Shown one piece after another: positions 29,189 through 36,278 of a stretch of DNA of 64,000 bases. The first letter of the stretch is position 1. Each line of letters begins with the position of its first letter. Below the pieces are notes generated by a model, which was not told the DNA's origin, did no database searches, and saw only the letters and a list, made by a program, of their open reading frames with translations. The stretch spans positions 1,167,923 through 1,231,922 of the forward strand of contig CAWAXD010000014.1 of the NCBI GenBank assembly GCA_963785985.1, written 5' to 3'. The stretch comes from an uncultured delta proteobacterium. GTDB lineage: Bacteria; Myxococcota_A; UBA9160; SMWR01. The translations under genes and the position numbers were made by a program.

Positions 29189-30371
29189 ATGCATCTCGAG
29201 TTCACGCCCGAGCAGCAGCGGCTGCGCCAGGAGATCCGCGGCTACTACCGCGAGCTCTTCACGCCCGAGCTGCGCGCGGCCCTCGATGCCGAGTGGGAAG
29301 AGATGGGCGGACCCGTCTTCCGCGAAGTGGTCGGGCGGATGGGCAAGGACGGCTGGCTGGGGATCGGCTGGCCGCGCGAGCACGGCGGCCAGGGCCGCAC
29401 GGCGATCGAGCAGTTCATCTTCTGGGACGAGACCTATCGCGCGCGCGCGCCGCTCCCGGTCATCGCCGTCAACACGATCGGACCGACGCTGATGCAATAC
29501 GGAACGCCGCAGCAGAAGGCGGAGCTGCTGCCCGGCATCGTGAAGGGCGAGCTGTTCTTCGGCGTGGGCTACACCGAGCCCGGCGCGGGCACCGATCTCG
29601 CCTCGCTCACGACGCGCGCCGTGCGCGACGGCGACGAGTACGTGATCAACGGGCAGAAGAGCTACACCACCCACGCCCACGACGCCGACTGGATCTGGCT
29701 CGCGGCGCGCACCGATCCCGACGCGCCGAAGCACAAGGGCATCTCGATCATCCTGGTGCCGACGAGCGCGCAGGGCTTCTCCTTCACGCCGATCCACACG
29801 CTCGGCGGTGAGCGCACGAACGTCACCTATTACTCGAACGTGCGCGTGCCGGTCACGAACCGCGTCGGGCCCGAGAACCAGGGCTGGTCGCTGATCACCT
29901 CGCAGCTCAACCACGAGCGCATCACGCTCGCCTCGCCGGGCTGCGCCGACGCGCTGCTCGATCGCGTCTGGGACTGGGCCGGCGAAGGTCGCCGCGCCCG
30001 AGGGCGGCCGCATGCTCGATCAGCCCTGGGTGCAGCTCAACCTCGCGCGCGCCTACGCCAAGCTCGACGCGCTCAAGGTGCTGAACTGGCGCTCGGCATG
30101 GTCGATCACGGCGGGCGTGCCCAACATGGCCGAGGCGTCGGCCGTGAAGGTGCTGGGCACGGAGCTATGCATCGAGGTCTATCGCCTGCTGCTCGAGATC
30201 GTCGAGGCCTCGGGCCTCGTGCTGCTCGGCGAGCCCGGCATGCTGTTCGGCGGAGTCCTCGAGAACGCCTACCGCAGCGCCACCACGCTCACCTTCGGGG
30301 GCGGCGTGAACGAGGTGCAGCGTGACATCATCGCCATGGCCGGCCTGGGTCTGCCCCGGGCGCGGCGCTAA
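29189..30371 (+). pseudogene. acyl-CoA dehydrogenase (FadE/ChsE-like), one frame break as assembled
   Basis: MHLEFTPEQQRLRQEIRGYY...GWLGIGWPREHGG...GVGYTEPGAGTDLASL...INGQKSYTTHAH (ORF 29189..30325), then MLDQPWVQLNLARAY...FGGGVNEVQRDIIAMAGLGLP (ORF 30012..30371). The break is near 29977. Confidence 0.85.
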
Positions 30372-30385
30372 CGCGTGAGGCCAGC

Positions 30386-31353
30386 ATGAGCACGAAGGAA
30401 GCTCTCGAGAAGCAGCTCGAGAGCGTACGTGGGAATCGAGCAGGGACCCGTCGAGATCGCGCAGGACCCCGTGAACGAGGCCGATGATCCGTCACTGGTG
30501 CGAGGCGATGGGAGACCGCAACCCCGCCTATCTCGATCCCGAGGCCGCGAAGCGCAGCGTGCACGGAGGCATCGTCGCGCCGCCCGTGATGCTGCAGGCC
30601 TGGATCCTCGGCGGCCTCGAGATGGCGGACACCTCCGCCGGCCCGAAGAACGAGCAGCAGGTGCTCCACAAGCTGCTCAGCGAGCATGGCTACACGTCGG
30701 TCGTCGCGACCAACACGGACCAGGAATACACGCGCTATCTGCGCCCCGGCGATCGCGTCACGGCGACGACCATGATCGAGTCGATCTCCGAGGAGAAGAC
30801 GACCGGTCTCGGCATCGGCTACTTCATCGAGACGCGCATCGACTTCACGGACCAGCACGACGCGCGCGTCGGCTCGATCTCCTTCCGCGTGCTCAAGTTC
30901 AAGCCCGCGCAGCAGGCGCAGCCGGTCGCGGCGGCCGCGGGCGGCGCCCCGGCGAAGCCGCGGCGCCTGCGCGCGCCGCGCGCGCACGACAACGGCTGGT
31001 GGTGGGAAGGCGTCGATCGCGGCGAGCTGCTGATCCAGAAGTGCAGCGAGTGCGGAACGCTGCGCCATCCGCCGCGCCCGATGTGCGGGAGCTGCCAATC
31101 CACGCAGTGGACCGGCATCGCCTCGAGGGGCGCGGAACGGTGTATAGCTACGTGGTGCTGCGCCACCCCCCGATCCCCGGCTACGACTATCCCGCTGCCG
31201 GTGGCGGTGATCGACCTCGAAGAAGGCACCCGCATCGTCTCGAACGTCGTCGGCTGCAAGCCGGAAGACGTCTACATCGGCATGAAGGTCCAGCTCTCGA
31301 TCGAGAACGTGGACGAAGAGCTGAAGCTGCCGCTGTTCCGGCCGGCGGCCTGA
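30386..31353 (+). pseudogene. MaoC-N hot-dog domain fused to a DUF35 Zn-ribbon/OB-fold domain (ChsH2-like), 4 frame breaks as assembled
   Basis: MSTKEALEKQLES / YVGIEQGPVEIAQDPVNEA / MIRHWCEAMGDRNPAYLDPE... lie in three successive frames (breaks near 30427 and 30483). The DUF35 part is DNGWWWEGVDRGELLIQKCSECGTLRHPPRPMCGSCQS, with a compensated -1/+1 pair (near 31126 and 31194) around GRGTVYSYVVLRHPPIPGYDYP. Confidence 0.7.
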
Positions 31354-31357
31354 CGCG

Positions 31358-34110: not shown

Positions 34111-34155
34111 CACCACCGGGCGCCGCGCGCGGCGCCTGCAAGGAGAAGAGTCCAG

Positions 34156-35339
34156 ATGCGTGAAGCCGTCATCGTCGAAGCGCTGCGCACCCCGATCGCG
34201 CGCGGCAAGGCGGATCAAGGGATCGCTCTCCGCGTTCCACCCCGCCCACCTGCTCGGCCAAGGTGCAGGACGCGGTGGTCACGCGGGCCGGCATCGACCC
34301 CGCGGAGGTCGAGCAGATCATCGGCGGCTGCGTCACCCAGGCGGGCGAGCAGGTCGAGCAACGTCGCGCGCAACGCCTGGCTCTCGCGCGGCAAGGGCTG
34401 GCACACGGCGCGGCACCACGGTCGACACGCAGTGCGGCTCGGGCCAGCAGGCCAACCACCTGATCTCCGCGCTCGTGCAAGGTCGGCAGCATCGACGTCG
34501 GCATCGCCTGCGGCGTCGAGGTGATGAGCCACGTGGGGCTCGGCGCGAACGTGATCAACGGCCCGGGCTTCTTCGAGCCCGCCGACTGGCCGTGGGACTC
34601 GACGCCCGATCAGTTCCGCTCGGCCGAGCGGATCGCCAAGAACCGCGGCATCACCCGCGAGGACGTCGACGCTTCGCGCTCGGCTCGCAGCAGAAAGCCA
34701 AGCAGCGCGCGCGACGAGGGCCGCTTCAAGCAGCGAGATCCTGCCGATCGACGCCCCCGTGCTCGGCGACGACGGCAAGCCGACCGGCCAGCACGCAGCT
34801 CGTCGAAGCAGGACCAGGGCATCCGCGAGACGACGCTCGAGGCGCTCGCGCAGCTCAAGCCCGTCGTCGAAGGCGGCATCCACACGGCCGGCAACTCGTC
34901 GCAGATCTCCGACGGGGCCGCGGCGATCCTGTGGATGACGGCGGAGAAGGCGCGCGCCCTCGGCCTGCGCCCGCGCGCGCGCATCGTGCACGACGTCGTC
35001 GTCGGCACCGACCCCTACTACCTGCTCGACGGGCCGATCGATGCCACGCAGGCCATCCTCGAGAAGACCGGCATGAAGCTCTCGGACATCGACCTGTTCG
35101 AGATCAACGAGGCCTTCGCGGCGGTCGTGCTCTCGTGGGCGAAGGTCTGCCAGCCGGACATGGACCGCGTCAACGTGAACGGCGGCGCAATCGCGCTCGG
35201 CCACCCGGTCGGCGCGACCGGCACGCGGCTGATCGTCACGGCGCTGCACGAGCTCGAGCGCCGCGGCCTCGGCACCGCCTTCATCACCATGTGCTGCGGC
35301 GCCTCGGTCGGCACCGGCACCATCATCGAGCGCCTGTAG
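34156..35339 (+). pseudogene. acetyl-CoA C-acyltransferase (thiolase II), about 10 frame breaks in the first 660 nt
   Basis: [66 protein letters not shown] and [11 protein letters not shown] change frame repeatedly. From about 34820 the reading is intact to the end ([15 protein letters not shown]...[20 protein letters not shown]...[16 protein letters not shown]). Confidence 0.85.
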
Positions 35340-35355
35340 GCCCAGGGAGGACGTG

Positions 35356-36278
35356 ATGCTCGGCAATCTCGAAGGCAAGGTCGCGATCGTCACGGGCGCC
35401 GCGCACGGGCTCGGCCGCGTCGAGGCGCTCGACGCTCGCGAGCCAGGGCGCGCGCGTCGTCGTCAACGATCTCGGGACGCGCGGCGACGGTCGCGGCCGC
35501 GACGAGATCGGCGGCGCGCGCGGTGGTGGAGGAGATCCGCAAGCAGGGCGGCGAGGCCGTGCCGCACTTCGGCGACGTCGCCGATTGGAACGATTCGCAA
35601 GCCATGATCAAGACCGCGCTCGATACCTGGGGCGATCTCCACATCCTCGTCAACAACGCGGGCTTCCTGCGCGATTCGACGATCTTCAACATGACCGAGG
35701 AAGACTTCGATGCCGTGATCCGCGTCCACTTGAAGGGCCACTTCTGCGGCATGCGCTTCGCGACCGCCTACTGGCGCGACAAGGCCAAGGCCTCGGGCGG
35801 GACGGTCTATGGACGCCTGATCAACACCAGCTCCGAGGCGTTCATCTTCGGCTCGGTGGGCCAGCCGAACTATGCGGCGGCGAAGGCGGGCATCGTGGCG
35901 ATGACGATGTCGGCCGCGCAGGCGCTGCTGAAGTACGGCGTCACGGCGAACGCGATCATGCCGCGCGCGCGCACCCGCATGAACGAGGGCGGCCCGCTGG
36001 CGGCGATGTTCGCGAAGCCCGCCGACGGCTTCGACGTGTTCGCACCCGAGAACGTCGCGCCGCTGGTCGGCTACCTGGCGTCGCCGGAGGCGCAGCGCAT
36101 CTCGGGCCACGTGCTGATCATCTGGAACAAGGACGTGACGGTGCTCGGGCGCCCCAGCACGAGCACGAAGTTCTCGAGCCCCGAGCGCTGGACCGTCGCG
36201 AGCCTGCACCAATCGCTGGCGCCGCACTTCGAGAAGCTCGAGCCGGTGAAGGACGGCTTCACGGTGCCGCCAGCCTGA
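35356..36278 (+). pseudogene. short-chain dehydrogenase/reductase (SDR), 2 frame breaks near the 5' end
   Basis: MLGNLEGKVAIVTGAAHGLGR (Rossmann TGxxxGxG), then TLASQGARVVVNDLG, then the intact ORF 35523..36278 (NNAGF...SSEAFIFGSVGQPNYAAAKAGIV). Breaks are near 35432 and 35503. Confidence 0.8.

Follow-up and report, generated by a model that had tools for sequence, protein, structure and literature searches.

The 64,000-nucleotide stretch of contig CAWAXD010000014.1 analysed here (assembly GCA_963785985.1; hereafter the window) carries a beta-oxidation operon of seven genes, for two acyl-CoA dehydrogenases (ACAD1 and ACAD2), two MaoC-type proteins, an Ltp-type protein, a thiolase and a short-chain dehydrogenase/reductase (SDR), in which the reading frames are repeatedly broken by single-base insertions and deletions. 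Most of the extra bases reproduce an allele that related genomes carry at an adjacent position. The frame breaks are likely an artefact of consensus building or polishing that arose from the collapse of two diverged copies of the locus, probably in a long-read metagenome assembly.

Frame breaks in the operon

The genes of the operon, with the breaks placed in each by nucleotide alignment, are as follows.

29189–30371, plus strand: ACAD1, ChsE-like; one break; Pfam Acyl-CoA_dh_N/M/1
30380–31353, plus strand: ChsH2-like protein with a FAS1-type dehydratase region, zinc ribbon and OB fold; four breaks, one of them −1; PF13452, PF12172, PF01796
31358–32491, plus strand: ACAD2; two breaks, and an extra insertion at 32483 where its stop overlaps the start of the following gene
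32488–32915, plus strand: small MaoC-like hydratase, ChsH1-like; four breaks; PF01575; positions 32790–32840 poorly resolved
32928–34110, plus strand: Ltp-type protein ('lipid-transfer protein', Thiolase_C_1); ten breaks, all +1
34156–35339, plus strand: thiolase; ten breaks, nine +1 and one −1; PF00108, PF02803
35359–36278, plus strand: SDR; two breaks, close to the N-terminus

This alignment was made with MAFFT against reference loci from closer relatives (L081–L085 and L087–L089), which are 86–90% identical to the window at the nucleotide level. It resolves 34 single-base indels, comprising 31 insertions and three deletions, between positions 29981 and 35506 of the plus strand (6.2 per kb). 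The positions, accurate to a few bases and all on the plus strand, are listed here.

+1 insertions in ACAD1, the ChsH2-like gene, ACAD2, the MaoC gene and the start of the Ltp gene: 29981, 30422, 30481, 31190, 31964, 32080, 32483, 32627, 32741, 32812, 33045
+1 insertions in the remainder of the Ltp gene: 33167, 33353, 33497, 33598, 33634, 33695, 33771, 33789, 33862
+1 insertions in the thiolase and SDR genes: 34212, 34256, 34354, 34409, 34478, 34704, 34734, 34790, 34806, 35432, 35506
−1 deletions: 31130, 32546, 34670

Frameshift-aware protein-to-DNA alignment with the intact orthologues of two further relatives, L001 and L004 (BLOSUM62, frameshift penalty 14), gave 31 breaks, 29 of which were +1. 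These were distributed as one in ACAD1, four in the ChsH2-like gene, two in ACAD2, four in the MaoC gene, ten in the Ltp gene, eight in the thiolase gene and two in the SDR gene. A compensating pair that is absorbed in the protein alignment is resolved at the nucleotide level, where the count is the higher of the two. Without any use of homologues, a frame plot of G+C content at third codon positions (GC3) and a seven-state codon-usage segmentation, trained on long open reading frames (ORFs) elsewhere in the window, showed some 30 switches of the plus-strand coding frame between 29981 and 35442. The frame-change points of that interval had no stop codons near them, and the segmentation yielded gene-sized segments in most other parts of the window.

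An earlier note, made from the letters and a list of ORFs, had counted about 32 breaks here, 28 of them +1. The three independent checks described above agree with it on number, direction and position to within a few bases, and this includes the frameshift-aware alignment, which the note had named as able to show its count wrong. Its count of ten for the thiolase gene stands, that for the Ltp gene rises from nine to ten, and its statement that in-frame stops are absent is confirmed by frameshift-aware alignment, with none in about 2300 repaired codons of the seven genes. Apart from these single-base events, lengths within the genes change by multiples of three, leaving aside the poorly resolved stretch 32790–32840. 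The inserted bases (11 G, nine C, seven A and four T) are close to base composition, and the tendency towards a G after a C that had been remarked on is therefore weak. An apparent recurrence of a 64-nt spacing between some of the breaks became 59, 60 and 63 nt after realignment and was discarded as chance.

The window has a G+C content of about 71%, except in a lower-GC island at 43.7–55.5 kb. Because of this composition, wrong frames run on for hundreds of codons without a stop, and lists of ORFs mislead if used on their own. This bears on recoding as an explanation, in which programmed ribosomal frameshifting or transcriptional slippage would bypass the breaks. The one observation in its favour is the absence of stop codons, but out-of-frame stretches are open simply through the 71% G+C content, the 34 sites share no common slippery motif or homopolymer, and none of the break sites is conserved in any relative. 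The probability of recoding is practically negligible.

Character of the inserted bases

Inspection of the alignment columns shows that nearly every break in the operon falls at a site that is polymorphic among the relatives. An allele-union test was therefore applied to the isolated insertions. For each event a base within two positions was deleted in place of the base taken as extra, and the event was scored as union-consistent if the bases in which the resulting second, in-frame haplotype differed were all alleles found in relatives. By this measure 27 of the 30 isolated +1 events are union-consistent, that is, the extra base is the alternative allele of an adjacent position in relatives. 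An analytic null model, with random insertions, the same allele table and an aligner-like choice of gap position, gave 10.5 ± 2.6 such events (35%) and a maximum of 19 in 4000 trials. A null model of the full pipeline, in which random insertions were placed into the clean L081 or L001 sequences, realigned afresh with MAFFT and scored with the same code, gave 25% overall and 31% for L081. The excess has a P value of about 2e-11, and it is retained both with close relatives only (9 versus 3.4) and with distant relatives only (23 versus 5.8).

Individual sites illustrate the pattern. At 33167 the window reads ATCG, which is the sum of ATC, as in L001 and L004, and ACG, as in L081. Similarly, GTCG at 33695 corresponds to GTG plus TCG, ACAG at 33771 to ACG plus CAG, CAGC at 34734 to CAG plus CGC, and GAGA at 35506 to GAG plus GAA, while many third positions that are either GCC or GCG read GCCG. 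At the deletion at 34670, where the alternatives are CGC and GCC, the window has GC.

The earlier note had also observed that the insertions do not lie in homopolymers. Indeed, 23 of the 31 inserted bases are unlike both neighbours (run length 1) and none of the 31 lies in a run of three or more, and homopolymer-type events make up seven of the 30 where about 48% would be expected (P = 0.006). Such avoidance of homopolymers would follow if the bases placed next to each other were different alleles.

These properties are difficult to reconcile with random sequencing error in a patch of low coverage or without polishing, where insertion errors from one or a few noisy long reads would have survived. 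This was essentially the cause suggested in the earlier note. The indel density of about 0.6% is within the range of raw modern long-read error, and a typical homopolymer deletion is present at about 4210 in the same window. However, the match to a neighbouring allele is 90%, against 25–35% expected, and only 23% of events extend a neighbouring base, against about 48% expected. Moreover, the complete absence of insertions from runs of three or more is at odds with sequencing platform errors, which concentrate in homopolymers (PMC9262707). A low-coverage, insertion-prone patch thus does not fit the data, and random error is an unlikely source of the breaks.

A different possibility is that the inserted bases are real, for example if faulty repair of a heteroduplex after recombination with a diverged donor had left both parental alleles side by side. 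We know of no mutational process that copies the alleles of relatives into insertions, and this reading is considered highly improbable. If it were true, a whole catabolic operon would have been inactivated in one step without other decay.

Related loci

When species-representative genomes were scanned with the N-terminal part of ACAD1, which is intact, the matches were metagenome-assembled genomes (MAGs) of Myxococcota, the best with 81% amino-acid identity, so that the source genome itself does not belong to this set of GTDB representatives. In both L001 and L004 all seven genes are present in identical order and intact. Closer relatives came from a search of proteins with repaired Ltp as the query, after which the contigs of the matches were looked up; those carrying the operon are listed here.

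L081: GCA_036560145.1
L082, L083 and L084: Joint Genome Institute (JGI) soil contigs
L085: GCA_966191295.1
L087: a further locus with the operon
L088 and L089: MEGAHIT contigs

The syntenic genes are unbroken wherever they are covered in L001, L004, L081–L084, L087 and L088, and the same is true of L085 and L089 apart from a split ACAD1 in L085. The intact relatives include MEGAHIT and JGI short-read contigs. Comparison with the orthologous locus of a close relative, a check put forward in the earlier note, therefore finds the operon intact in every clean relative. The flanking genes that are common to L081 encode a luciferase-like protein, a PEP-CTERM protein, PEMT, HerA and an aquaporin. In L085 (positions 6160–7449) ACAD1 is called as two pieces of 229 and 189 aa, and near positions 160–330 a run of N lies beside a 169-nt stretch that is missing from the window; the L085 MAG therefore also has local assembly problems.

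All seven repaired proteins of the window give full-length Pfam matches above the curated cut-offs, and their identity to L081 (75–95%) is similar to that of clean neighbouring genes. For repaired ACAD1, 393 of 394 residues align with L001 at 80% identity. Intact 390-aa proteins in public data match repaired Ltp at 93% identity, and the public protein search gave no match to it above this value.

The same type of damage was found in a second contig. L086 (ENA ERZ25039490, contig_96888) is a 106-kb contig of a close relative from another assembly, with a Flye-style name, and its flanks are 91–95% identical to the window. Frame breaks occur at about 10 per kb in its operon, HerA and aquaporin genes (L086:2700–14100) and are absent from its PEMT gene and its 117-aa gene. 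The operon breaks are again biased towards +1 (66:17), 49 of 60 isolated insertions are union-consistent versus 19.4 ± 3.7 expected, and homopolymer-type events number 14 of 60 versus 31.7 expected. The presence of the same signature in L086 indicates that the error mode is a property of the kind of assembly and not of the organism. L086 also shows that whole contigs of such a kind can be noisy, which is a point in favour of random read error.

A further alternative is genuine pseudogenisation, in which the operon and some upstream genes would be dead through many real +1 insertions. In its favour, the bases are present in the deposited sequence, the breaks fall in functionally linked genes, and no independent sequence of the same strain contradicts them. 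In bacteria, mutation and the decay of pseudogenes favour deletions and consist mainly of substitutions, whereas here 31 insertions stand against three deletions (P about 8e-7), with no nonsense codons and no in-gene deletions of more than one base. Furthermore, protein identity to relatives appears undiminished, the inserted bases copy the alleles of relatives, an unrelated noisy contig (L086) has the same signature, and every clean relative has an intact operon. Amino-acid changes unique to the window are modestly more frequent in Ltp and MaoC, a difference that is confounded by the shape of the tree, by unresolved stretches and by the position of the window as outgroup to L081 and L085. Pseudogenisation is thus very unlikely, and the operon is most probably intact and functional in the living bacterium.

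Frame breaks elsewhere in the window

The damage had been described as confined to one operon, and this did not hold. About 10 further breaks, some of them only probable, were located upstream, and the operon is the hot spot of a wider and much sparser problem, with 34 of about 44 events in the window falling within 5.5 of its 64 kb (P for clustering about 1e-27). The further breaks, and two clean regions that served as controls, are given below.

4204–4221, plus strand: break at about 4210 in a histidine kinase gene (about 2935–4742); one −1 beside a G6 run; segmentation
19916–19968, minus strand: CobW/GTPase-like gene; two +1; three-frame translation and segmentation
22394, minus strand: possible or probable further +1, in the region 22391–24035; L085 protein alignment
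22791, 23280 and 23331, minus strand: aldehyde dehydrogenase gene; three +1; L085 protein alignment and DNA alignment, with segmentation flagging 22783–23333
24035, minus strand: helix-turn-helix regulator gene; one +1; L085 protein and DNA alignment
26483–27954, minus strand: gene for a glycine-rich PEP-CTERM-type protein; a probable +1 at about 26483 and a probable −1 at about 27954
36298–43743, no strand assigned: clean downstream flank (control); no breaks versus L081 in the genes for PEMT, a 236-aa protein, a 117-aa protein, HerA and MIP (aquaporin)
47818–54897, minus strand: intact 2359-aa RHS-type ORF (control), inside the lower-GC island

Within about 50 nt the reading of the CobW-like gene moves through all three frames, with ...GLRVAV followed by two more pieces. 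In the histidine kinase gene the HisKA and HATPase parts are read in different frames, and the event at about 4210 is a typical, classic homopolymer-length error of another kind than the operon events. The deletion in this G run and the insertions in the CobW-like and aldehyde dehydrogenase genes demonstrate that the assembly is imperfect. The two PEP-CTERM breaks are less certain, as the reference is only 55% identical, though the ORF pattern agrees with them.

By comparison, the glyoxalase, NUDIX and luciferase-like genes (24404–26403), between the breaks at 22–24 kb and the operon, are clean, and the region 55.5–64 kb looks clean. The flank at 35.5–43.7 kb and the 7-kb RHS ORF had been reported as clean, and this was upheld in every gene that could be tested against a homologue. 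The lower-GC island (43749–55542; 59–66% G+C versus about 71%) contains the intact RHS-type ORF and smaller ORFs. It is absent from L086, where 43749 joins 55542 directly, and is probably a strain-specific toxin island.

Other features of these regions were noted. The split histidine kinase gene is followed by a paralogous intact kinase gene (about 4731–6466). The PEP-CTERM-type gene (26414–28276, minus strand), upstream of the operon, encodes a repetitive, glycine-rich secreted protein, has a low GC3 signal and overlaps a long spurious 783-aa ORF (27662–30013) that runs antisense into ACAD1. An in-frame stop at 10274 was considered as a nonsense mutation and rejected, since it separates two ordinary genes, for an enoyl-CoA hydratase and a GST-like protein.

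Origin of the frame breaks

That the breaks are an assembly artefact and not biology, as the earlier note had supposed, is strongly favoured by the intact relatives, the absence of stops and the 75–95% identity to L081, although this falls short of proof. The signature of the insertions suggests how the artefact may have come about. In the noisy stretches, reads from two diverged copies of the locus would have been piled onto one contig. The copies would most likely derive from two co-occurring strains or populations, or alternatively from a paralogous copy. During consensus building or polishing, a substitution difference between them may then have been encoded as an insertion and a deletion, each of them optional. 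The usual outcome would be the retention of both alleles side by side (net +1), and the occasional outcome the loss of both (net −1). Clean stretches would be those where the copies are identical or where there is a single copy only, as in the RHS island. This two-copy account would explain why the strain-specific island that L086 lacks is clean.

The source is a 1.59-Mb contig deposited with both NCBI and ENA; a relative in ENA (L086) has a Flye-style name, and the window carries the homopolymer deletion at about 4210. The 64-kb window contains neither a second copy of the operon nor a run of N. Flye collapses related strains into one consensus (PMC8302730), and coding sequences can be broken where haplotypes are mixed in a consensus (PMC8092372). 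Pipelines for long-read MAGs from soil use Flye with one round of Medaka, and their quality is limited by microdiversity (PMC12313526).

Several considerations weigh against a collapse of two copies. The two haplotypes are deduced from the pattern of alleles and not seen in reads, and a search for an independent assembly of the same strain covering the operon found none. The clean flanks are about as conserved among the relatives as the operon is, and confining the mixture to some stretches calls for a further assumption, for example that a tract was recombined or that a segment is shared locally. As for the algorithmic step, which is conjecture, a 50:50 single-nucleotide polymorphism is not by itself guaranteed to give an insertion on a simple likelihood. 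The long-read technology is likewise only a probable attribute of the source, and L001, a long-read MAG contig, is intact, which shows that long-read assembly alone is insufficient.

A step in identity to L085, from 95% before 29845 to 89% after it, was not used as a sign of chimerism because clean upstream genes are also at about 86%. A Logan contig of 3965 nt from run ERR12037368 encodes proteins identical to those of the PEMT, 224-aa, 117-aa and 594-aa genes of the window (about 36227–40191). It starts at about 36227, just past the operon, and ERR12037368 may hold reads of the source sample. A literature search for ERR12037368 and ERZ25039490 gave no result.

Consequences for annotation

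Taken at face value, the sequence would lead to seven genes being called pseudogenes, or to about 20 spurious ORFs, and to the pathway being scored as absent in the genome. Fragments created by the frameshifts in the operon already exist as separate proteins in a public protein collection, for example those of a 289-aa ORF (30484–31350) and a 251-aa ORF (35523–36275), and two fragments are cluster representatives. The probable artefact is thus propagating into databases. The allele-union test, combined with homopolymer avoidance, tells strain-collapse errors apart from random read error and real decay without recourse to reads. It worked on two independent contigs and may serve as a read-free diagnostic of MAG quality. 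The value of the case is methodological; in terms of the organism's biology the finding is ordinary and of low interest.

Comparison with known systems

In actinobacteria the set for steroid side-chain beta-oxidation consists of ChsE1-ChsE2, ChsH1-ChsH2, Ltp2 and FadA5. The gene content of the repaired operon was compared with this set, and two ACADs, a MaoC pair that includes the zinc ribbon and OB fold of ChsH2 (the Pfam families take their name from ChsH2), a thiolase-like protein of the Ltp type and a thiolase were all found, accompanied by the SDR. The gene order of the repaired operon is conserved among Myxococcota MAGs, as judged from synteny with L081 and L085. In contrast to the actinobacterial systems the host is Myxococcota-like and the window showed no genes for steroid ring degradation; the likeness is one of gene content only.

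Many frame-disrupted genes in a row are also a feature of reductive decay, examples of which are Mycobacterium leprae and recent host-restricted pathogens, with their deletional bias. The operon differs from these in that stops and multi-base deletions are lacking, insertions predominate, the proteins show no apparent excess of divergence and the orthologues in all clean relatives are intact. Homopolymer indels of the Nanopore, 454 or Ion type are similar in that single-base indels fragment gene calls, and the window has one such case, at about 4210. Unlike these errors, the operon insertions avoid homopolymers and consist of bases that differ from their neighbours.

Overall, the closest parallel is with the errors of collapsed-strain consensus sequences. 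The published descriptions (PMC8302730, PMC8092372) concern haplotype switching and residual errors in general, whereas here the haplotypes are deduced without reads, and no paper was found that describes the retention of both alleles next to each other together with a strong bias towards +1. What the operon shares with those consensus errors is local damage, limited to stretches in which two diverged copies would co-align and seen again in another noisy metagenome contig (L086), with broken frames, no other sign of decay and two plausible alleles to be read out of every break.

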